A DNA stretch of 46,142 nucleotides from Escherichia phage ULINTec7: the sequence record MZ997841.1, one strand, 5' to 3'. Shown here piece after piece: positions 1-40,307 of this stretch; position 1 is the first letter of the stretch, and each line of letters begins with the position of its first letter. The position numbers were made by a program, and so were the translations under genes. Below the pieces are notes generated by a model, which saw only the letters and a list, made by a program, of their open reading frames with translations, made no database searches and was not told where the DNA came from.

Positions 1-634
1 CCATATGGGGTCGGTCGGCGGTTGACCTAGGAATTGGGCGGGGCGGGTCCGTCTTCAACCTGCTGCCGCAGGAAGCTCGACGGGTGGGCGAGGGCTTGCC
101 TTGTACTCGCTTAGTGGTACACAAGGAGAACGCCTAGGAAGCGCTAGGGCACGCCTTAGTATTGGACAAGGTGATTGCCTTAGTTCAACCGCTTAGGGCT
201 TACACGGGCCGTTTTAGGGCCATTCCTGAGCGTTTGACAGGGTGTGAGGGCGTGGGCTATCTGTTCGTTTCGTTCACTCCGCTTGCGCTACGTTCACTCG
301 CTCACGTGTACCTTAGGTTATTCCTTGATGGATAGCTTAGATTAGCCTTAGTGGATTACCTTAGTTAAAGCCTTAGTGCTTCACTTAGTATCAGCTTAGT
401 AGTGTACCTTAGTAAGTCTTAGTGTCTTCTCTTAGTGATTGCACATGCAAGCATGTAAGATGCCATTAGGTCGCGGTCGGTAGACCGCTAAAAGAAGGAG
501 AATAGTAATAAGATGCAGTAGGAGGAACACCAGAAGCCTAGCCAACCTAGCCTATCCTAGCTCTGTATCTATTGCTTTTCCTTAGTCTAACACGTTAGAC
601 AACCTATCTTATTCTTAGTGATGGTAACTTAGTG

Positions 635-6239: not shown

Positions 6240-6313
6240 TATTAATAGGCCATTCCTTAGGGAGTGGCCTTTTTCTTTACCTACTACCTGTAACATTTCA
6301 TTAACATAAAAGT

Positions 6314-6329
6314 GTCTCACATGTGAGAC
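6314..6329. promoter_or_regulatory. Conserved palindrome GTCTCACATGTGAGAC, copy 1
   Basis: Perfect 16-bp palindrome immediately 5' of the promoter at 6331. Confidence 0.6.
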
Positions 6330-6330
6330 T

Positions 6331-6352
6331 TATTTACCGGACACTATAGGAT
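6331..6352 (+). promoter_or_regulatory. Phage-RNAP promoter
   Basis: TATTTACCGGACACTATAGGATAG matches the consensus. Confidence 0.7.
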
Positions 6353-6500
6353 AGCCGTCGGAGACGGGAAAGAAAGGGAAGATAAAGGATATAAAGGAAG
6401 TAATAGGTATTAAAGGTTATATAGGTTATCTAGGAATACCTAGGAATACCTATTACCTTCTTCCTTCCTCTTATTACCACTTAGAGGAAGGGCAGACCTA
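6353..6500. promoter_or_regulatory. AT-rich dyad-symmetric region, candidate primary replication origin
   Basis: Purine-rich arm at 6366-6411 and complementary pyrimidine-rich arm at 6445-6478, with direct repeat TAGGAATACC x2 at 6431-6450. Lies between two promoter copies just downstream of the RNAP gene, the position of the T7 primary origin. Confidence 0.45.
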
Positions 6501-6503
6501 GGT

Positions 6504-6520
6504 TGTCTCACATGTGAGAC
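6504..6520. promoter_or_regulatory. Conserved palindrome TGTCTCACATGTGAGAC, copy 2
   Basis: Same palindrome as at 6314, followed by a promoter-like sequence. Confidence 0.6.
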
Positions 6521-6522
6521 TT

Positions 6523-6547
6523 CGTATTTACCGGACAGTATAGATAA
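6523..6547 (+). promoter_or_regulatory. Phage-promoter-like sequence (degenerate: ACAGTATAGATAAG)
   Basis: GTATTTACCGGACAGTATAGATAAG differs from the consensus in the conserved CACTATAGAAG core. Confidence 0.35.
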
Positions 6548-6573: not shown

Positions 6574-6711
6574 ATGCGTAACGTAGAAAAGATTACCCGT
6601 AGAAGCCGTCATGAGTGCGATGTAGATATTAGCACCCTTAAGAATCGTGCCAAAAAGTGGGTACAACAACGCGGCGGTGTCAATCGTAATATGAAACGTA
6701 ATTGGAACTAA
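6574..6711 (+). CDS. Small basic protein (45 aa), T7 gp1.1-like
   Basis: Hand-translated MRNVEKITRRSRHECDVDISTLKNRAKKWVQQRGGVNRNMKRNWN resembles recalled T7 gp1.1 (MRNFEKMTKRSNRN...). Confidence 0.5.
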   Translation: MRNVEKITRRSRHECDVDISTLKNRAKKWVQQRGGVNRNMKRNWN

Positions 6712-6721
6712 AGGGCAGACC

Positions 6722-7875
6722 ATGGCTATTATTAATAACATCCCATGTCCTCAATGTCAGAAGAATGGACACGATAAATCAGGCAACCACCTTATGATAT
6801 TCGAGGATGGTGCTGGGTACTGTAACCGTGGTCACTTCCATGATAATGGCAGACCTTACTACCATAAGCCTGAAGGGGGCATCGAGATAACCGAGTTGCC
6901 TATTACTGGCAATATCAAATATACACCTTCCCAGTTTAAAGAGATGGAGAAGGAAGGGAAGATTAGCGACCCTAAGCTACGCGCCATCGCACTTGGTGGT
7001 ATGCGTATGAAAGACCGTTGGGAGGTTATGAATGAGCAAGAAAGGGCAGACCAAGAAACAGAGTGGAAACTTGATGTTGAATGGTTCCTCACGCTTAAGC
7101 GTAAGAATCTTGTTTCCCGACACATTCGCGGCGACATTTGCGCATTGTATGATGTACGGGTCGGACACGATGAAGAAGGTAGAGTCTCACGGCATTACTA
7201 TCCACGCTTCGAAAAATGTGAGCTAGTAGGCGCTAAGTGTCGCACATTACCTAAAGACTTTAAGTTTGGTCATTTAGGTAAACTATTTGGTATGCAAGAT
7301 CTTTTCGGTATGAATACTTTGTCTCACGTGTTAGACAAGGGAAGACGAAAGGATTGCTTGCTTATTGTCGGCGGCGAACTGGATGCACTAGCAGCACAGC
7401 AAATGCTCCTTGATTCTGCCAAGGGTACTAAGTGGGAAGGCCAGCCTTACCATGTATGGTCTGTCAATAAAGGTGAGTCTTGCCTTGAAGAGATAGTACA
7501 GAACCGTGAACACATCGCCCAATTTAAGAAGATTATATGGGGTTTTGATGGAGATGAGGTAGGGCAGAAGCAGAATCAGCAAGCGGCTCGCCTGTTTCCT
7601 GGCAAATCCTATATCCTTGAGTACCCTTCTGGTTGCAAAGATGCCAACAAGGCATTGATGGCTGGCAAGGCTAAAGAGTTTGTTGATGCATGGTTTAATG
7701 CCAAGTCATCTGATGAAGTCTTTGGTAGCCAGATTAAATCTATCGCATCTCAAAGGGATAAGCTCAAGGCTGCACGTCCAGAGCAAGGACTATCATGGCC
7801 TTGGCCTAAGCTGAACAAGGTAACGCTAGGTATTCGTAAGAACCAACTTATCATTGTAGGCGCAGGCTCTGGCGT
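6722..7875 (+). CDS. DNA primase-helicase, exon 1 (zinc ribbon, TOPRIM, start of helicase Walker A)
   Basis: CPQC...C..GHFH zinc ribbon and LLIVGGELDALAAQQ TOPRIM resemble T7 gp4. The ORF continues to ...LIIVGAGSGV and then runs into a stop at 7895-7897 within inserted sequence; the proposed exon ends at 7875. Confidence 0.7.
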
Positions 7876-8662
7876 TAACATTAGCGCCGCCATGTAGTAA
7901 TACATGGGCAATAATCGTGTGAACTCAGGGGAAGACTAGAACAGTTAATCCTGAGCCAAGCTAGGCACACCTCAAATTCAAAGGAGGTGTTATGCAATTT
8001 AAAGAAGTACCAGATCACAGTAATTATATTTGTTATGAGAATGGCACGGTTGTTAATCGTAAGACTGGAAAGGTCTTGAAAGAAGATACAACTAACCGAG
8101 GTTATAAGCGGATTACAGTAAGCAAGGGCAACAAGGTAACACGTTGGAGTGTGCACCGTTTAGTTGCTTTACTGTTTATCCCTAACCCTCATAATTATGA
8201 AACTGTTAATCACATATCGGGAGATAAGACGGATAACTCTGTTAGTAATCTTGAGTGGATGAGCCAAGAACAGAACCAAGCCCATGCTAAATATACAGGA
8301 CTGTGTCCTAAAGGTGAGGCTGTTGGCACTAATAAGTTCAAAGAGGCAACTATTCATCAAGTGTGCAAGCTAATAGAGAAAGGTTTATCTCGCGGTGAAA
8401 TTATGAAAGCAACGAGCATCTCTAAAGCAACCTTTGATGACATTCGTAGAAGGAAGACTTGGAAGCACGTATCTTGTTCATATAAATGGTGACAATCTGG
8501 TGTGCCTAGAAGGTGCAACGACTATCCCGAAAGGGAGTACAGCCAAGCGGCTGGAAGCGCACGACACCCATCGTGGGTGATGATATAGTCTGGTCTATAT
8601 GGGGACATATAGCAGTTCATAAGAGAACGGGCGTGGCTTAGCGAACCACGTCGAACATAACG
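7876..8662 (+). mobile_element. Putative group I intron carrying an HNH homing endonuclease ORF, inserted in the helicase Walker A codons
   Basis: The 5' exon ends in U (7875) and the insert ends in G (8662). Exon 3' end GGCGU can pair with intron GCGCC at 7884-7888 (P1 with a U.G wobble). The downstream frame opens right after a stop at 8658-8660 with GKTEF and no start codon. Joining gives the contiguous P-loop GAGSGVGKTEF. Confidence 0.6.
7992..8492 (+). CDS. HNH homing endonuclease (intron-encoded)
   Basis: 166 aa with HRLVALLFIPNP...VNHISGDKTDNSVSNLEW, a typical HNH/AP2-type motif; AGGAGG SD upstream; a paralog of the ORF at 10976. Confidence 0.85.
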   Translation: MQFKEVPDHSNYICYENGTVVNRKTGKVLKEDTTNRGYKRITVSKGNKVTRWSVHRLVALLFIPNPHNYETVNHISGDKTDNSVSNLEWMSQEQNQAHAKYTGLCPKGEAVGTNKFKEATIHQVCKLIEKGLSRGEIMKATSISKATFDDIRRRKTWKHVSCSYKW

Positions 8663-9497
8663 AGGTAAGACTGAGTTCCTTCGTGAAGTAGTTAAGCACC
8701 TCATTGAAGAACACGGTGAATCTGTAGGCATCATTTCTACAGAAGACCCGATGGTCAAGGTGTCCCGTGCTTTTATCGGCAAGTGGATTGATAAGCGTAT
8801 TGAGTTACCGCCAACCAACGACCCGAAAGAAGATGGATACCGTGAGGTGTTCGACTACACCGAGGAAGAAGCTAACGCCGCCATTGATTATGTAGCTGAT
8901 ACAGGTAAGCTGTTTGTGGCTGACCTAGAGGGTGACTATTCGATGGAAAAGGTAGAGCAAACTTGCCTAGAGTTTGAGGCTATGGGCATTTCTAATATCA
9001 TCATTGATAACTTAACGGGGATTAAATTAGATGAGCGTGCTTTTGGTGGGAAGGTTGGTGCACTTGATGAATGCGTCAAGCGGATTGGTACTATCAAAGA
9101 CCGACACCCGGTTACTATATTCCTTGTATCACACCTTACACGTCCTCCGGCAAACCGTACCCAACATGAAGAAGGTGGCGAAGTTATCCTTTCTGACTTC
9201 CGAGGCTCAGGCGCTATCGGATTCTGGGCATCTTACGCCTTGGGGATTGAGCGTAATACAAGAGCTGAAACGCTTGACGAAAGGACTACCACGTACATCT
9301 CATGTGTCAAAGACCGCGACCAAGGTATCTGGACTGGAACCAAGGTCATGCTTAAGGGTGACATTCAAACCGGACGTTTAATGGAACCACAAGCCCGTAC
9401 TAAGTCATTTGATACAGGTGAAGCAAGGCAACAAGAAGTGCCGGATTTACCGGACACTATAGAAGAGACAACCTTTGACGATGAACAGGAGTTTTAA
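8663..9497 (+). CDS. DNA primase-helicase, exon 2 (helicase RecA-like domain)
   Basis: Frame reads GKTEFLREVV... from 8663, through the ORF-track ATG at 8751, to DDEQEF. FLVSHLTRP and SDFRGSGAIGF...LGIERN resemble T7 gp4 helicase motifs. Exon 1 plus exon 2 is 1989 nt, a 662-aa product. Confidence 0.7.
9445..9467 (+). promoter_or_regulatory. Phage-RNAP promoter inside the helicase 3' coding region
   Basis: ATTTACCGGACACTATAGAAGAG matches the consensus. Confidence 0.65.
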
Positions 9498-9671: not shown

Positions 9672-9695
9672 GCTTGTCTCACATGTGAGACAGGC
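9672..9695. promoter_or_regulatory. Conserved palindromic hairpin GCTTGTCTCACATGTGAGACAGGC, copy 3
   Basis: Extended 11-bp stem around the 16-bp core, located at a gene end. Confidence 0.6.
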
Positions 9696-10854: not shown

Positions 10855-10878
10855 GGTTGTCTCACACGTGAGACAGCC
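10855..10878. promoter_or_regulatory. Conserved palindromic hairpin, copy 4 (loop variant CACACGTG)
   Basis: GGTTGTCTCACACGTGAGACAGCC: the stem is conserved while the central dinucleotide differs. Confidence 0.55.
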
Positions 10879-10908: not shown

Positions 10909-11016
10909 ATGAATAACTACGACTCTGATTGGGATTTCTACGATTCAATGCAATCTAAACCAGAAAGGAGGGAGGATGAGTTCGAAACAGATCAAATGTA
11001 CGAGGATTTTTACTAA
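10909..11016 (+). CDS. Hypothetical small acidic protein (35 aa)
   Basis: Short ORF that overlaps the start of the HNH gene; weak call. Confidence 0.2.
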   Translation: MNNYDSDWDFYDSMQSKPERREDEFETDQMYEDFY

Positions 11017-11455
11017 CTACATCCTCTACTCTGATGGTCGAGTTCTTAACGAGAAAACCGGACAATATCTAAGAGGTTACTTAGATAAAGATGGGTATCA
11101 TATTATGAATATTAAAGGGAAACACCTTAAAGTTCATCGATTAGTTGCTATCCATTTCATACCTAACCCTAATAATTTACCTGAAGTTAACCATAAAGAT
11201 CATGACCGTCTAAACAATAATGATTGGAATCTAGAGTGGTGTACTCATCAAGATAACAACAAGCATAGCTTACATTTAGTAATAGCTTCTTGTGCTAAAC
11301 GCTATGACTTTATATCACCACAAGGTGTCCATGTAGAAGTCTATAACTTACGTGAGTTTTGTAGGAATAACAACCTACAGCAATCTCATATGGTTAAGGT
11401 GGCTAAAGGTAAAGTAAGACATCATAAAGGTTGGACTAATTATGCTAGATGTTGA
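10976..11455 (+). CDS. HNH homing endonuclease (free-standing)
   Basis: 159 aa with HRLVAIHFIPNP...VNHKDHDRLNNNDWNLEW; AGGAGGGAGG SD; paralog of the intron ORF at 7992. Confidence 0.85.
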   Translation: MSSKQIKCTRIFTNYILYSDGRVLNEKTGQYLRGYLDKDGYHIMNIKGKHLKVHRLVAIHFIPNPNNLPEVNHKDHDRLNNNDWNLEWCTHQDNNKHSLHLVIASCAKRYDFISPQGVHVEVYNLREFCRNNNLQQSHMVKVAKGKVRHHKGWTNYARC

Positions 11456-14202: not shown

Positions 14203-14259
14203 GTTATACTCAAGGTCACTTACGAGTGGCCTTTATGAATAACTTAACTGGAGAGTATT

Positions 14260-14520: not shown

Positions 14521-14543
14521 TTTACTGGACACTATAGAAGGAA
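14521..14543 (+). promoter_or_regulatory. Phage-RNAP promoter
   Basis: TTTACTGGACACTATAGAAGGAA. Confidence 0.75.
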
Positions 14544-14606
14544 AGCCTAGACAATCTAGGTTTATAAGGTAGTATAGGTAATTAAGTAAATATAGGAGAT
14601 ATAAAC

Positions 14607-14984
14607 ATGTCTATGGTAACTACTCTGGTATTTGTAGCTCAATACTTTCGTGGTCTGGCTAATAAGTTCAAGTCCAAGGCTATCAAAGCTATTGAGTCTC
14701 GCATCGAGGTAGTACAGGCAGAGCAAGTTAAAGTTGAAGAACATCGTAGTTCTCAAATGATTGACTGCCATAACCGCTACTATGCATCTCGTGATGACCT
14801 TAATGCACGCCAAGTCAAAGAGGTTGAAGATATGATGGCACGTCACCAGCAAGAGCGTGACAGCATGAAAGCTGAATTTGAAGAGAACAAGGCATCCATT
14901 GCTCTGGTACACCAATCTGCATCTGACAGTCTGAAGAAAGAGATTGTTATGCTTGAAATCGAACTGGACAACCTGACCAAATAA
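14607..14984 (+). CDS. Hypothetical protein (125 aa)
   Basis: ORF downstream of the promoter with AGGAG SD. Confidence 0.55.
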   Translation: MSMVTTLVFVAQYFRGLANKFKSKAIKAIESRIEVVQAEQVKVEEHRSSQMIDCHNRYYASRDDLNARQVKEVEDMMARHQQERDSMKAEFEENKASIALVHQSASDSLKKEIVMLEIELDNLTK

Positions 14985-15459: not shown

Positions 15460-16266
15460 ATGGCACGTGGTGATTTTGATTTTGGTGCTTCCGTATCTAA
15501 AGCTGAAGGTAAAGTCTTTAAGAACCCAGAAGTAGGTGATCATGAAGCAGTAATCTCTGGCATCATTCATGTTGGTTCCTTCCAAGACATCTTTAAGAAA
15601 GGTAATACCACTGAAGTTAAGAAGCCAGCAAACTTTGTTCTAGTTAAGATTGTCCTGATGGGCGACGATGACAAGAACGAAGATGATTCTCGCATGGAAC
15701 AATGGATGGCTGTTCCTCTGAAGTCTGGTGATAAGGCAACACTGACTAAGTTCCTAAATGCAGTTGACCCAAAAGAATTGCTTGGTGGCTTCGATGATTT
15801 TATCGGGGAATGCCTGACTGCAACTATGGTTGGCTCTGGTGACAAGAATGACGATGGTTCATTCAAGTATGTTAACTGGAAAGGATTCGGTGGTATGCCT
15901 GACAAGCTTAAGAAACTTGTCATTGCTCAGGTTGAAGAAGAGGGTCTGTCTATGACAGGTCACATCACCTTCGACAAGCTGACCAAAGAAATCCTTGATG
16001 ACATTCCTGCTAACTTGGTACGCCAATACTTCCTGAATGAAACGCCTCGTGGTAAGAACCTGTCTGTTGCTGGCTCTCATGTAGAAGCAATCATTAAAGC
16101 TGCTCGTGAAGAAGACCCAGAGTGGAAGAAGGCCAAGAAGAAAGATGATGAGGATGCCACTCCAGCTAATCGTAAATCTCTGGACACTGGTGAGTCTGTT
16201 CCGCAGGAAGTACCTGAAGCAGAAGATACGCCTGCACCGGAGATGGATGAGGACGCAGAATATTAA
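15460..16266 (+). CDS. Putative ssDNA-binding protein (gp2.5-like by architecture)
   Basis: 268 aa with an acidic C-terminal tail ending in an aromatic residue (PEMDEDAEY), as in the T7 gp2.5 tail. The assignment is an inference from architecture only. Confidence 0.4.
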   Translation: MARGDFDFGASVSKAEGKVFKNPEVGDHEAVISGIIHVGSFQDIFKKGNTTEVKKPANFVLVKIVLMGDDDKNEDDSRMEQWMAVPLKSGDKATLTKFLNAVDPKELLGGFDDFIGECLTATMVGSGDKNDDGSFKYVNWKGFGGMPDKLKKLVIAQVEEEGLSMTGHITFDKLTKEILDDIPANLVRQYFLNETPRGKNLSVAGSHVEAIIKAAREEDPEWKKAKKKDDEDATPANRKSLDTGESVPQEVPEAEDTPAPEMDEDAEY

Positions 16267-16495: not shown

Positions 16496-16511
16496 GTCTC
16501 ACATGTGAGAC
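16496..16511. promoter_or_regulatory. Conserved palindrome GTCTCACATGTGAGAC, copy 5
   Basis: Lies 15 nt upstream of the promoter at 16526. Confidence 0.6.
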
Positions 16512-16598: not shown

Positions 16599-16976
16599 AT
16601 GTTCAAGATTGAAACTATCGTAAACCGTGTTGTTAAAGGTGCTGCTCTGGTATCCGTTGAGTCTTTCATTATCGTCGATGAAGCTGATCAACTGGTAGCT
16701 GGTACTAAGGCTTACGATACCCGTGAAGAAGCTCAGGCTAAGATTGACAGCATGGGTAACTTCGCTGCTGGTCTGGAGTTCGCTCGTGCTTGCTTCCCTG
16801 AGCAGGCTGACAAAGCTCAGATTGGTAAGGCTAATATCGTAGCTGAATATCTGGATTGGATTGCTGCTGGTAAGCCGGTGAAAGAAGTTAAGTCTGCTGA
16901 AGAAGCTGAAGCTCAGGCAGTAGAAGAAGTAGCTGCACCGGTAGATGCTCCGGTAAGCGAAGAAGAAGAGTTTTAA
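16599..16976 (+). CDS. Hypothetical acidic protein (125 aa) with C-terminal SEEEEF tail
   Basis: Bracketed by a consensus promoter upstream and a hairpin plus T-run downstream; AAGGAG SD. Confidence 0.65.
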   Translation: MFKIETIVNRVVKGAALVSVESFIIVDEADQLVAGTKAYDTREEAQAKIDSMGNFAAGLEFARACFPEQADKAQIGKANIVAEYLDWIAAGKPVKEVKSAEEAEAQAVEEVAAPVDAPVSEEEEF

Positions 16977-32862: not shown

Positions 32863-32888
32863 GGCTTGTCTCACATGTGAGACAGGTC
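32863..32888. promoter_or_regulatory. Conserved palindromic hairpin, copy 6
   Basis: GGCTTGTCTCACATGTGAGACAGGTC, between the internal virion protein genes. Confidence 0.6.
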
Positions 32889-37389: not shown

Positions 37390-37672
37390 ACATGCAGCTA
37401 CAGAGGACGAGGTTGGCATTCTGCATGGTGCTATTACCAAAATCTTTAATAAGAAAGCACAGGCAATACTGGACACTATAGAAGAAGACCCAGATGCAGC
37501 ATTGCATTTAGTGTCTGGTAAAGACATTGGAGCTATGTGTAAGTGGGTTCTTGATAATGGTATTACCGCTACACCTGCTGCACAGCAGGAAGAGTCCAAG
37601 TTATCTAAGCGCCTCAAGGCTATCCGAGAGGCATCCAGTGGTAAGATAATTCAATTCACTAAGGAGGATTGA
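37373..37672 (+). CDS. Terminase small subunit (putative)
   Basis: GTG start at 37373 with GGAGGGA SD; sits immediately before the large terminase. Confidence 0.5.
   Translation: MSVHNKHAATEDEVGILHGAITKIFNKKAQAILDTIEEDPDAALHLVSGKDIGAMCKWVLDNGITATPAAQQEESKLSKRLKAIREASSGKIIQFTKED
37466..37488 (+). promoter_or_regulatory. Phage-RNAP promoter inside the small terminase gene
   Basis: AATACTGGACACTATAGAAGAAG. Confidence 0.6.
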
Positions 37673-39570
37673 TGGCTAAGGCAAGAGAATCACAAGCGGA
37701 GGCTCTTGCCAGATGGGAGATGCTACAGGAGTTACAGCAGACCTTTCCCTATACAGCGGAAGGTTTGCTTCTCTTTGCAGATACAGTTATCCATAACTTG
37801 ATTGCAGGCAACCCTCATCTGATTCGTATGCAGGCTGATATCTTGAAGTTCCTATTCTACGGACATAAGTATCGCCTCATCGAAGCGCCTCGTGGTATCG
37901 CTAAGACAACACTATCAGCAATCTATACGGTATTCCGTATTATCCACGAACCGCATAAGCGTATCATGGTTGTATCCCAAAACGCTAAGCGAGCAGAGGA
38001 AATCGCTGGTTGGGTGGTGAAAATCTTCCGTGGCCTAGACTTCCTTGAGTTTATGCTGCCGGATATCTACGCAGGGGACCGTGCATCCGTTAAAGCATTT
38101 GAGATTCATTACACCCTACGTGGTAGTGATAAGTCTCCCTCTGTATCCTGTTACTCAATCGAAGCAGGTATGCAGGGTGCTCGTGCTGATATTATTCTAG
38201 CGGATGACGTAGAGTCGATGCAGAATGCTCGTACGGCAGCGGGCCGTGCCTTGCTTGAGGAACTGACTAAGGAGTTTGAATCTATCAACCAGTTTGGGGA
38301 TATCATTTACCTTGGTACGCCTCAGAACGTAAACTCTATCTACAACAACCTACCTGCTCGTGGCTACTCTGTTCGTATCTGGACTGCACGTTACCCCTCA
38401 GTGGAGCAGGAGCAATGCTATGGTGACTTCCTTGCACCTATGATTGTGCAGGATATGAAGGACAACCCCGCACTTCGCTCTGGTTATGGGTTGGATGGTA
38501 ATAGTGGTGCACCTTGTGCCCCTGAAATGTATGATGATGAAGTCCTGATTGAGAAGGAAATCTCTCAGGGTGCAGCTAAGTTCCAGCTTCAGTTCATGCT
38601 TAACACTCGCATGATGGATGCAGACCGCTACCCACTACGCCTGAACAACCTCATCTTCACCTCATTTGGTACAGAGGAAGTCCCTGTGATGCCTACGTGG
38701 AGCAATGACTCCATCAACATCATCGGTGATGCACCGAAGTATGGCAATAAGCCTACAGACTTCATGTATAGACCTGTGGCTCGCCCGTATGAATGGGGTG
38801 CTGTTACACGCAAGATTATGTATATTGACCCTGCTGGTGGTGGTAAGAATGGTGACGAAACAGGCGTGGCTATAGTCTTTCTGCACGGCACATTCATTTA
38901 CGTGTATCAGTGCTTCGGTGTGCCAGGCGGATACCGTGAATCGTCCCTGAATCGCATTGTGCAGGCCGCAAAGCAGGCGGGTGTTAAAGAGGTATTCATT
39001 GAGAAGAACTTTGGTCATGGCGCGTTTGAGGCCGTTATAAAGCCATACTTTGAACGAGAGTGGCCTGTAACTCTGGAAGAGGATTACGCCACAGGACAGA
39101 AAGAGTTGCGTATCATTGAGACGCTGGAGCCACTCATGGCGGCGCACAGGCTCATCTTCAATGCCGAGATGGTCAAGTCTGACCTTGAGTCAGTACAGCA
39201 CTATCCACTTGAACTACGCATGTCCTACAGCCTTTTCAATCAAATGTCGAACATCACGATTGAGAAGAACAGCCTCCGGCACGATGACCGCTTAGACGCT
39301 CTGTATGGCGCTATACGGCAATTAACTTCTCAGATAGACTATGACGAGGTTACACGGATTAATCGCCTCAGAGCGCAGGAGATGCGCGATTACATCCATG
39401 CTATGAACACACCTCACCTCCGTAGGGCGATGCTCTATGGAGATTATGGCACTGAGCGAAGAGTAACCAACACTTCCGTGGCTATGCAGCAAAGAGTGTA
39501 CGGTCAGAATTACAGGAGTAAATCGGCCAACCGAAATACACTTTCTGCAAGGATTTCAAGGACTTATTAA
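37669..39570 (+). CDS. Terminase large subunit
   Basis: 633 aa; ATPase and nuclease region with IILADDVES; position and size match T7 gp19. Confidence 0.85.
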   Translation: MMAKARESQAEALARWEMLQELQQTFPYTAEGLLLFADTVIHNLIAGNPHLIRMQADILKFLFYGHKYRLIEAPRGIAKTTLSAIYTVFRIIHEPHKRIMVVSQNAKRAEEIAGWVVKIFRGLDFLEFMLPDIYAGDRASVKAFEIHYTLRGSDKSPSVSCYSIEAGMQGARADIILADDVESMQNARTAAGRALLEELTKEFESINQFGDIIYLGTPQNVNSIYNNLPARGYSVRIWTARYPSVEQEQCYGDFLAPMIVQDMKDNPALRSGYGLDGNSGAPCAPEMYDDEVLIEKEISQGAAKFQLQFMLNTRMMDADRYPLRLNNLIFTSFGTEEVPVMPTWSNDSINIIGDAPKYGNKPTDFMYRPVARPYEWGAVTRKIMYIDPAGGGKNGDETGVAIVFLHGTFIYVYQCFGVPGGYRESSLNRIVQAAKQAGVKEVFIEKNFGHGAFEAVIKPYFEREWPVTLEEDYATGQKELRIIETLEPLMAAHRLIFNAEMVKSDLESVQHYPLELRMSYSLFNQMSNITIEKNSLRHDDRLDALYGAIRQLTSQIDYDEVTRINRLRAQEMRDYIHAMNTPHLRRAMLYGDYGTERRVTNTSVAMQQRVYGQNYRSKSANRNTLSARISRTY

Positions 39571-39590
39571 TTACTGGACACTATAGAAGG
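39567..39590 (+). promoter_or_regulatory. Phage-RNAP promoter
   Basis: TTAATTACTGGACACTATAGAAGG. Confidence 0.8.
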
Positions 39591-39690
39591 AAGGCCCAGA
39601 TAATAAGAGAAATAACAAGGATAATATAGGTTAACCTAGGTTATATAGGTATGCCTTAGTATGGGTGTACTCCTGTACACCCTATTCCTT
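39591..39690. promoter_or_regulatory. AT-rich repeat region related to the 6353-6500 origin-like element
   Basis: Shares the 12-mer GGTTATATAGGT (39639-39650 and 6415-6426) plus ATAGGTTA and CCTAGG motifs; palindrome GGGTGTAC-TCCT-GTACACCC at 39663-39682. Confidence 0.4.
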
Positions 39691-39728
39691 ACTTCCTTAC
39701 TATACTCACATAATAGGAGAGAGAGAGA

Positions 39729-40007
39729 ATGTCTAATAGTTATAGCACACAACCCCTTACAGGTAAGTCTGCTCGTAAGCAGATACAACCTGTGAGTGAA
39801 GCCCTGATGCTTCCTGTAGTTTACGAGGACACTGTTGAGAAGAAAGGTGATGTTATTAATGATGCCACCAAATCAGGTAAGCAGAAAGGAGCCATGGTGT
39901 GTCTTGATACACATGATACACTGGTTATTGCTATCGCAGTTGATGGCAAAGAAGATTCCAATTGGCTGACCACGTTATTAGCGGTCACGACTATTACCCC
40001 AGCTTAA
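39729..40007 (+). CDS. Hypothetical protein, paralog A of a tandem pair
   Basis: 92 aa; shares MSN..., LKKK.D.IN, SGKQKG.MV, IAIA and TP.A with the next ORF. Confidence 0.55.
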   Translation: MSNSYSTQPLTGKSARKQIQPVSEALMLPVVYEDTVEKKGDVINDATKSGKQKGAMVCLDTHDTLVIAIAVDGKEDSNWLTTLLAVTTITPA

Positions 40008-40019
40008 GAGGAGAATTAC

Positions 40020-40307
40020 ATGTCTAATTATGGAAACGCAGGTACTGTTACTGGTCAAGCTTTTCGAGTAAAAACTGTACAAACCACTGCAACGGCAATC
40101 CCTTTGCCTATTGTTGCTGAAGCAGACCTTAAGAAGAAAGATCACCCTATCAACATTAAACACCTATCTGGCAAACAGAAAGGCTCCATGGTTGCTGTAG
40201 AGAAAGCAGACAACTCCTTGTACATCGCTATTGCACGTGGTAGTGAACCAACTGACCCTTGGGATGCAACCACTATGGAGACGGAACCTGTAACACCTGT
40301 AGCTTAA
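40020..40307 (+). CDS. Hypothetical protein, paralog B of a tandem pair
   Basis: 95 aa; see paralog A. Confidence 0.55.
   Translation: MSNYGNAGTVTGQAFRVKTVQTTATAIPLPIVAEADLKKKDHPINIKHLSGKQKGSMVAVEKADNSLYIAIARGSEPTDPWDATTMETEPVTPVA

Follow-up and report, generated by a model that had tools for sequence, protein, structure and literature searches.

A phased AGG-repeat array follows three phage promoters in Escherichia phage ULINTec7 and its SP6/K1E-type relatives, with a possible origin-like role

In Escherichia phage ULINTec7 (MZ997841.1), of which a window of 46,142 nt was analysed, a 158-nt gap separates the large terminase gene (37669–39570) from a homologue of gene 41 of phages K1E and K1-5 (39729–40007). 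A preliminary description noted that an A+T-rich element in this gap shares a 12-mer with a stretch that follows the RNA polymerase gene, and proposed, by analogy with phage T7, a secondary replication origin or a shared protein-binding site. The locus raises the question of what the two stretches have in common, and what it may be for. Here we report that both belong to modules in which a phage promoter is followed by a phased array of short AGG-containing units. There are three such modules per genome; they are paralogous and conserved across the SP6/K1E subfamily. The phage itself is a K1E/K1-5-like Vectrevirus of the SP6 group (Autographiviridae, Molineuxvirinae), a podovirus. Over 700 bases around the locus, it is 99% identical to Escherichia phage ULINTec6, 95–98% to K1E-type Vectrevirus genomes and 87% to K1-5.

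The array unit is of the type (A/C)TAGG(T/A)(A/T) and occurs once per 9–10 nt. From 166 units in 31 distinct arrays we obtained the consensus (A/C, 88%)(T, 66%)AGG(T, 67%)(A, 67%), in which the A/C at −2 and the T at −1 emerged in the logo although the search pattern did not impose them. Units are spaced by 10 nt in 73 cases, by 9 nt in 53 and by 8 or 11 nt in nine, that is, by 9–10 nt in 126 of 135. The three arrays, all on the plus strand, lie after the RNA polymerase gene (A1), after the DNA polymerase block (A2) and after the large terminase gene (A3), each directly 3′ of a phage promoter. Only three of the 13 phage promoters carry one. Array A3 (39586–39662) has eight units, with AG at 39588, 39598, 39608, 39618, 39628, 39638, 39647 and 39658 (+3 to +73 of the transcript); its early units are purine-rich and degenerate, and the last five are (A/C)TAGGT(T/A)-like. 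Its phase is anchored at the transcript start (+3), and it runs up to a hairpin at +78. Array A1 (6366–6452) comprises nine or more units, with GG at 6367, 6377, 6387, 6396, 6406, 6415, 6424, 6433 and 6443. Array A2 and its promoter (14522–14539) together span 14522–14606; its seven units have AG at 14539, 14549, 14558, 14567, 14576, 14585 and 14594, and the last of them (TAGGAGA) serves the gene starting at 14607 as its actual ribosome-binding site.

The arrays stand out statistically. With the cluster pattern AGG[TA][AT] and gaps of 8–11 nt, plus-strand runs of at least three units were found only at the three loci, namely two runs of at least four (seven and four units) and one of three. 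Two runs of at least four units compare with a mean of 0.002 per genome in 500 dinucleotide-preserving shuffles. A1, A2 and A3 are also three of the four best plus-strand 80-nt segments for 9–10-nt AGG periodicity; A1 ranks at the top of the genome, and the fourth, at about 29.2 kb, is coding. Composition is strongly asymmetric, purines giving way to pyrimidines: the most purine-rich 40-mer of the genome lies in A1, and the pyrimidine tracts that accompany A1 and A3 are both among the four most pyrimidine-rich 40-mers. A chance origin of the arrays, and of the 12-mer pair, is ruled out by the shuffles.

How the 12-mer relates to the array can now be stated. As described earlier, GGTTATATAGGT is identical at 6415–6426, inside A1, and at 39639–39650, and the window contains no further match even when one mismatch is tolerated (0.15 expected by chance; at least two matches in none of 100 shuffles). 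The identity extends to a 13-mer, AGGTTATATAGGT, and the two loci also share ATAGGTTA, ATAGGTAT, CCTAGGT and, as reverse complement, TTACTTCCTT. The other motifs that had been pointed out are in place as well: ATAGGTTA at 39626, CCTAGG at 39635, and the GC palindrome GGGTGTAC-TCCT-GTACACCC at 39663–39682, with an 8-bp stem and a 4-nt loop. In A3 the 12-mer begins in the 3′ part of unit 6, crosses a TA spacer and ends in the 5′ part of unit 7. Its absence from relatives, which was to count against a shared element, was found in part: the exact 12-mer occurs at both loci in only five of 19 paired relatives, all five of the K1E/K1-5 type. In some other clades, A1 and A3 have other two-unit strings in common, for example TAGGTAACCAGGTAT and TAATAGGTAGTTA, and such coincidences are expected because only two or three free bases lie between the cores. 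Since the 12-mer is clade-limited while the array is kept in all lineages examined, the 12-mer is, judging from the comparison of sequences, a by-product of the array, and the functional unit is to be sought elsewhere than in the 12-mer itself. Thus, the proposal of an element common to both loci holds for the phased array, and not for the 12-mer as a discrete site. The description of the stretch as A+T-rich applies in a modest sense (65% A+T in the first 75 nt of the leader, against 55% for the genome), but the richness is not distinctive, the stretch falling outside the 15 most A+T-rich 75-nt windows.

Arrays were found at the same three positions in SP6 and K1-5, and the SP6 counterpart of A3 has the same layout, with AGG at +3, 12, 21, 31, 41, 51, 60 and 71. 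We further drew post-polymerase and post-terminase loci from IMG/VR and examined the downstream sequence at 25 loci each (about 20 relatives). With the exception of a few loci that were truncated or displaced, a phage-type promoter with an array right behind it was seen at each. Promoters vary by clade ahead of their conserved (C)TATAG core (TACTGGACA, TAGGGGACA and TAGTGGCGAG, with TAGGTGACA in SP6), and the spacers diverge too, as in L040 (TTATAGGTAT ACCTAGGTAT TCCCAGGTAT GCCCTAGGTA ACCAGGTAT). No unit sequence was seen to co-vary with promoter specificity; the units remain AGGTA-like while the promoters change. Overall, leader and flanking coding DNA are conserved to the same degree: identity with SP6 is 72% for the A3 leader and 71% for the 3′ end of the terminase gene, and 90% for both the A2 leader and its downstream gene, the A2 leader reaching 94% with K1-5. 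Mosaic genomes exist, such as UAB_Phi78, which combines an SP6-type A1 with a K1E-type A3, and the clade-matching of A1 and A3 as a sign of a co-evolving factor is weakened by them. TA-dinucleotide expansions (TATATATATATAGG) occur inside A3 in K1-5 (L003 37630–37650) and in the metagenomic relative L062 (~1900–1915); slippage of this kind therefore changes how one unit is spaced, but the array persists. TAGGTA-type repeats, three or four of them 9–10 bp apart, were also noted in A+T-rich, apparently non-coding stretches of unrelated viral contigs (L108/L127, L077/L100, L128 and L143), those of L108/L127 being paired with an inverted set, like an operator or iteron block. The IMG/VR scan for TAGGTA triplets that yielded them was designed to find the pattern, so that no enrichment is shown, and the matches listed were mostly unrelated tandem repeats.

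The A3 module opens with the phage RNA polymerase promoter TTACTGGACACTATAGAA at 39571–39588, directly after the terminase stop codon, which ends at 39570. The preliminary description had placed a consensus promoter just before the element, and this site has no mismatch to the consensus. It belongs to a set of 13 sites in the window, all on the plus strand, against 0.18 expected with a consensus built from the window's own sites, and transcription would start at G39586, the transcribed leader extending to 39712. A sigma-70-like match (TGGACA, 18 nt, GATAAT; 10 of 12 positions) at 39575–39604 overlaps the phage promoter, and such matches occur in the region at chance rate. A search for homology or complementarity to E. 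coli genomes gave no match at E ≤ 1.

Between the array and gene 41 lie two further elements. The hairpin at 39663–39682 (+78 to +97, plus strand), with an 8-bp stem and a UCCU loop, is terminator-like but without a clean U run, and is annotated as a putative terminator in MK373773. Its predicted free energy, −14.7 kcal/mol in the window, falls between −13 and −15 in nine of ten lineages, with five different stem sequences that include GGGTGTAC/GTACACCC, GGGAGGTA/TACCTCCC, GGGTACTC/GAGTACCC and GGGAC/GTCCC with outer GG/CC. Because the MAFFT hairpin alignments are not structural, pairs were counted by hand on ungapped 20-mers: the inner five are kept in eight of eight lineages, with two to three pair types each plus one G-T. 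The hairpin is thus kept as a structure through compensatory changes, which shows that a single-stranded form matters, and its G-T pair favours the plus sense; the form that matters would most likely be RNA. The tail after the hairpin, UAUUCCUU (TATTCCTT), contains no uninterrupted U run and passes only a lenient rule (five T in eight), and the tails of relatives are likewise mixed U/C. Next comes a pyrimidine tract, TATTCCTTACTTCCTTACTATACTC (39683–39712, plus strand), which is anti-Shine-Dalgarno-like and forms the second most pyrimidine-rich 40-nt window of the genome. Its predicted pairing partner is the 5′ GAAGGAAGG or, alternatively, the start codon of gene 41 together with its ribosome-binding site, and this sequestering of the gene 41 Shine-Dalgarno sequence and start codon is predicted for the window, SP6, L063 and L068. 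RNAalifold applied to whole A3 leaders gave no consensus structure within the array and no long-range stem, only the local hairpin; whole-leader folding z-scores are weak (+0.2 to −2.8), and no Rfam family matched the leader at gathering thresholds. The ribosome-binding site ATAGGAGAG and gene 41 (39729–40007, 92 aa) together occupy 39713–40007 on the plus strand. Gene 41 is a paralogue of gene 42 (40020–40307), and both match PHROG 2725, labelled 'acetyl-CoA acetyltransferase', a label that looks dubious since neither has Pfam support.

The A1 module has a more elaborate setting, again all on the plus strand. Promoter 1 (6334–6351, transcript start 6349) is preceded by the palindrome GTCTCACATGTGAGAC at 6314–6329 and followed by a 5′ hairpin, CCGTC-GGA-GACGG (6355–6367; +7 to +19 of the A1 transcript), of which compensatory variants occur in relatives (CCATCGGAGATGG, CCCTCGGAGAGGG, CCCTTCGGAGAAGGG and CCATCGAAGATGG). 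In the predicted folds, a pyrimidine tract pairs back onto the array units and is followed by a second pyrimidine/purine hairpin (CCTTCCTCT...AGAGGAAGG), the two covering 6445–6503. A second copy of the palindrome (6505–6520) and promoter 2 (6528–6545) come next, and then gene 8 (6574–6711, 45 aa), a homologue of T7 gene 1.1 (Pfam PF08200 Phage_1_1, 22.2 bits, cut-off 21). Ten lineages were folded: the 5′ hairpin and an 11–16-bp helix between units and pyrimidine tract are each predicted in all of them, these two and the second hairpin together in most, and RNA folding z-scores for A1 range from −1.4 to −5.3 in ten of ten.

Several observations concern the surroundings of A1. A strong intrinsic terminator (6247–6280, 10-bp stem, TTTTTCTTT tail) lies immediately after the RNA polymerase gene, possibly at the point where early transcription by the host polymerase ends. 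The palindrome GTCTCACATGTGAGAC is present seven times in the window (6314–6329, 6505–6520, 7321–7336, 9676–9691, 10859–10874, 16496–16511 and 32868–32883), in most cases a short way before a phage promoter or gene; at 9676, 10859 and 32868 its stem is longer and has flanks CAAGG...CTTTATGA like those of the T7 R1.1 stem-loop. In SP6-clade relatives a different palindrome, GTCCAACGTGTTGGAC, stands at both positions flanking the post-polymerase promoters. This suggests that the seven-copy palindrome is a conserved hairpin, serving as a processing or termination site, or an operator.

What the array does can be approached through T7, in which replication starts at phi1.1A/1.1B, and phiOR and phi6.5 are usable as secondary origins (PMC8373140). 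The parallel with T7 is stronger than the preliminary description had it, as A1 and A3 are syntenic with the phi1.1A/phi1.1B and phiOR regions, respectively. Like the T7 primary origin, A1 lies between the RNA polymerase gene and the gene 1.1 homologue and is flanked by two promoters; given the Phage_1_1 match, the locus thus has the arrangement of phi1.1A/phi1.1B, with the RNA polymerase gene, two promoters and gene 1.1 in succession. The A3 promoter follows the large terminase gene, as phiOR does, and A2 lies in the DNA-metabolism block, as does phi6.5. As at the T7 origins, a phage promoter fires rightward into an A+T-biased leader. The phage also encodes a primase-helicase (Toprim and DnaB_C matches), and an 848-aa protein that is, by its position, the putative DNA polymerase. 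Because the three array positions parallel phi1.1A/B, phi6.5 and phiOR, an origin-like role is our best guess, and we tentatively propose that the A3 module is a transcription-activated secondary origin of the T7 type, similar to phiOR, in which the array would be the shared recognition or structural element. By the same reasoning, the three modules would correspond, in the SP6 group, to phi1.1A/B, phi6.5 and phiOR, the 'replication promoters' of T7.

The two systems nevertheless differ in several respects. The T7 leaders are without an array of AGG decamers, and the SP6-group array lies between two promoters, not after the second. A3 is ~6.5 kb from the window end, with genes 41–47 downstream, whereas phiOR is ~700 bp from the right end. 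The A+T enrichment is weaker here and not specific to the array leaders, while T7 origin leaders have 62–74% A+T against 52%. Among T7 leaders, those of phiOL, phi1.1B, phi6.5 and phiOR are the most A+T-rich (62–74%). Among 17 T7 promoters, phiOR comes first and phi1.1B second in the ~11-nt [AT]AG periodicity of the leader (L192 39229–39313 and 5923–6007), a weak parallel from a post hoc test on small samples.

Apart from these differences, a number of results weigh against an origin-like role. Array-free promoter leaders, such as those at 9447 and 16529, reach 67–69% A+T, and since they are equally A+T-rich, a T7-style 'promoter plus A+T-rich' criterion fails to single out the three arrays. 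Cumulative GC skew is monotonic and without origin signal, but it is uninformative here because all genes are on one strand. The primase site of SP6, reportedly given as 5′-GCA-3′ by Tseng et al. (2000), is not enriched in the first 75 nt of the leader (39586–39660), with no copy on the plus strand and one on the minus strand. No initiator, ParR-like or regulator-type DNA-binding family was detected among the neighbouring and small open reading frames (ORFs). Promoter 39571 also has an ordinary job, driving genes 41–45, and A2, which runs in phase into a ribosome-binding site, looks like a translational leader. The consistent predicted structure of A1, and the compensatory changes of the A3 hairpin with their G-T pair, point to a role at the RNA level that an origin does not need, the RNA structure being clearly under selection. 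In the papers examined on SP6-like phages, where promoters and terminators are the only such elements named, we found neither a description of the arrays, of SP6/K1E-type replication origins or of non-coding control elements of these phages nor a report of origin activity for any SP6-group phage; the original genome papers (Scholl 2004, Dobbins 2004) and Stummeyer 2006 lay outside that search, so that an earlier description is possible.

Should the modules act as origins, the following course of events can be envisaged. The phage RNA polymerase would transcribe into the array, and the transcript, rich in purines and carrying one GG in roughly every helical turn, would tend to stay hybridised to the template. 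A persistent hybrid would leave the non-template strand, which bears the TAGGTA units, single-stranded, and the hairpin and pyrimidine tract would limit the hybrid or pause the polymerase. From there, the phage DNA polymerase and primase-helicase would take over. Such a scheme resembles known origins that are primed by a transcript and require a structured or G-rich leader, namely ColE1 RNA II and the mitochondrial LSP-CSBII, the latter used by a T7-like polymerase. In both, a promoter lies ~80–100 nt upstream of a transcription-limiting structure, as here, and the purine- and G-rich nascent RNA favours a persistent RNA-DNA hybrid; a conserved RNA structure is also compatible with an origin role in these systems. 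Unlike in them, the GG doublets here occur once per turn, and not as long G runs. Going beyond the T7 model, and with greater reserve, we consider that the array could represent an undescribed class of cis-element, which a dedicated trans-acting factor would read either on the nascent RNA or on the non-template strand once displaced. In all SP6/K1E-type phages it would then mark three zones of replication initiation or a regulon of three promoters. Candidate readers are the phage single-strand-binding protein and the primase-helicase, with a lattice size that would match the 9–10-nt repeat.

Nearly as likely as an origin-like role is a role as RNA-level leader. Here, the array would belong to a leader or small-RNA module that possibly sets the stability, termination or translation of downstream genes: a protein or 30S subunits would bind to an unstructured platform of phased AGG(U/A) units with stabilising hairpins on either side, and the pyrimidine tract would switch its pairing between the purine run at the 5′ end and the ribosome-binding site of gene 41. 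The covariation of the A3 hairpin, whose single G-T pair fits the plus strand only, the compensatory changes in the A1 5′ hairpin and the A1 z-scores are all in keeping with this, as is the lack of consensus structure in the array itself, and promoter, ~100 nt and hairpin have the anatomy of a small-RNA gene. The last A2 unit is a true ribosome-binding site, the genes downstream of A2 and A3 use an unusual, unit-like ATAGGAG ribosome-binding site, and the predicted sequestering of the gene 41 start fits as well. However, the strict 9–10-nt spacing has no obvious reason in RNA, TAGGTA units make poor Shine-Dalgarno sequences in a phage whose norm is AAGGAGG, and A1 does not stand directly before a ribosome-binding site. 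Nor do the weak whole-leader z-scores of A3, the missing Rfam match or the post-hairpin tail without a clean U run speak for it, and GGA occurs in only a third of the units, unlike in CsrA sites. A GGA-repeat sponge RNA of the CsrB/RsmZ type was rejected, with A following GG in 33% of the units and T in 67%, and the units lying outside predicted loops. Part of the same evidence bears on processing by RNase III at a T7-type site, which we consider very unlikely at the A3 locus. In T7, the stem-loop between phi1.1A and phi1.1B is the R1.1 RNase III site, and A1 lies at the matching place; the 11–16-bp A1 helix of array units and pyrimidine tract, predicted in all ten lineages folded, also fits. 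A3, on the other hand, has no predicted long helix or consensus long-range stem beside its local 8-bp hairpin, and the R1.1-like hairpin lies elsewhere and is unlike the array: a resemblance to T7 R sites (CAAGGTCA...TGGCCTTTATGA) has its sole match in the window at 14212–14233, outside every array. Three copies of the GTCTCAC palindrome with CAAGG...CTTTATGA-like flanks are also unlike the array. The hairpin CTCAAGGTCACTTACGAGTGGCCTTTATGA at 14209–14238, which closely resembles the T7 phi1.1A/phi1.1B stem-loop, is conserved in SP6 and K1-5 (L004 ~12233, L003 ~12518).

Two other explanations leave replication aside. In one, the array is an iteron array in double-stranded DNA, and a phage or host protein coats ~80 bp downstream of three promoters, regulating them as a roadblock, timing switch or activator. 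The spacing is near the helical repeat, the core is conserved while the spacers vary, the phase is anchored at the transcript start, the array is present at only three of 13 promoters, and an iteron definition of at least three direct repeats in near-helical phase describes the eight A3 units, 9–10 nt apart. As in iteron origins and centromeres such as lambda ori and R1 parC, the latter with 11-bp repeats, multiple short direct repeats with conserved core and variable spacers stand near helical phase beside a promoter. The units differ from those systems in being only 9–10 bp long, seven to ten in number and on the transcribed side from +3, and a cognate initiator or ParR-like gene was not detected here. 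The small ORFs encode no regulator-like DNA-binding protein, the sole above-threshold helix-turn-helix match being in a homing endonuclease, and operator-type control is not known from T7-type phages. Any binder would also have to tolerate unit variation, because the mosaic genomes combine an SP6-flavoured A1 with a K1E-flavoured A3. The TAGGTA triplets at 9–10 bp in apparently non-coding stretches of unrelated viral contigs lend some support, but a scan built to find the pattern proves no enrichment, and altogether we regard this explanation as unlikely. The other, which seems still less probable, is that the hairpin is a simple terminator or attenuator of the late (terminase) operon and the array a functionless, biased leader generated by slippage. 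The hairpin is indeed terminator-like and annotated as such in relatives, and the TA expansions in the K1-5 and L062 arrays show slippage. Like class I intrinsic terminators of T7-type RNA polymerases (T7 Tphi), it is a stable, GC-rich hairpin of conserved structure with a U-containing tail; it differs in that the tail is UAUUCCUU instead of a U run and that it lies only 78 nt from its own promoter. Slippage alone agrees poorly with core and phase being kept across lineages whose promoters and spacers have diverged, with the same array at three loci, one of them without a hairpin, and with a leader as conserved as the neighbouring coding DNA.

Further features of the genome were noted. The primase-helicase gene appears to be split, with the Toprim part at 6722–7897 and the DnaB_C part at 8751–9497, while K1-5 has a single gene 9; an ORF with HNH and HTH_7 matches, encoding a homing endonuclease (7992–8492), lies between the two parts, and a second HNH ORF is found at 10976–11455. 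Two ORFs, 15460–16266 (268 aa) and 16599–16976, encode proteins with acidic tails and a terminal aromatic residue (...EMDEDAEY and ...VSEEEEF). Such a C-terminus is a hallmark of T7 gp2.5, the single-strand-binding protein, and of gp4, and the 268-aa protein is a candidate single-strand-binding protein. T7 has a class II pause signal at its concatemer junction. Near the left end of the window (258–265) there is a single plus-strand copy of CATCTGTT, a class II pause/termination signal of T7-type polymerases (PMC11347151). A family of 35–62-nt repeats with GCTCTTTAACAAT has four copies in the early region (725–759, 1244–1305, 1556–1617 and 1819–1880).

SP6/K1E-type phages are the source of a widely used RNA polymerase and are therapy candidates against capsulated E. 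coli. Annotation pipelines now label the region after the terminase gene only as 'terminator' or leave it blank. A recognisable array in three copies offers precise targets for the mapping of origins, R-loops and RNA ends and for protein pull-downs. Arrays that act in RNA would represent a new kind of phage leader. If they define origins, the array would be a sequence-defined origin determinant that T7 lacks, and the T7 rule of 'promoter plus A+T-rich DNA' would have a sequence-specific counterpart in the sister subfamily.

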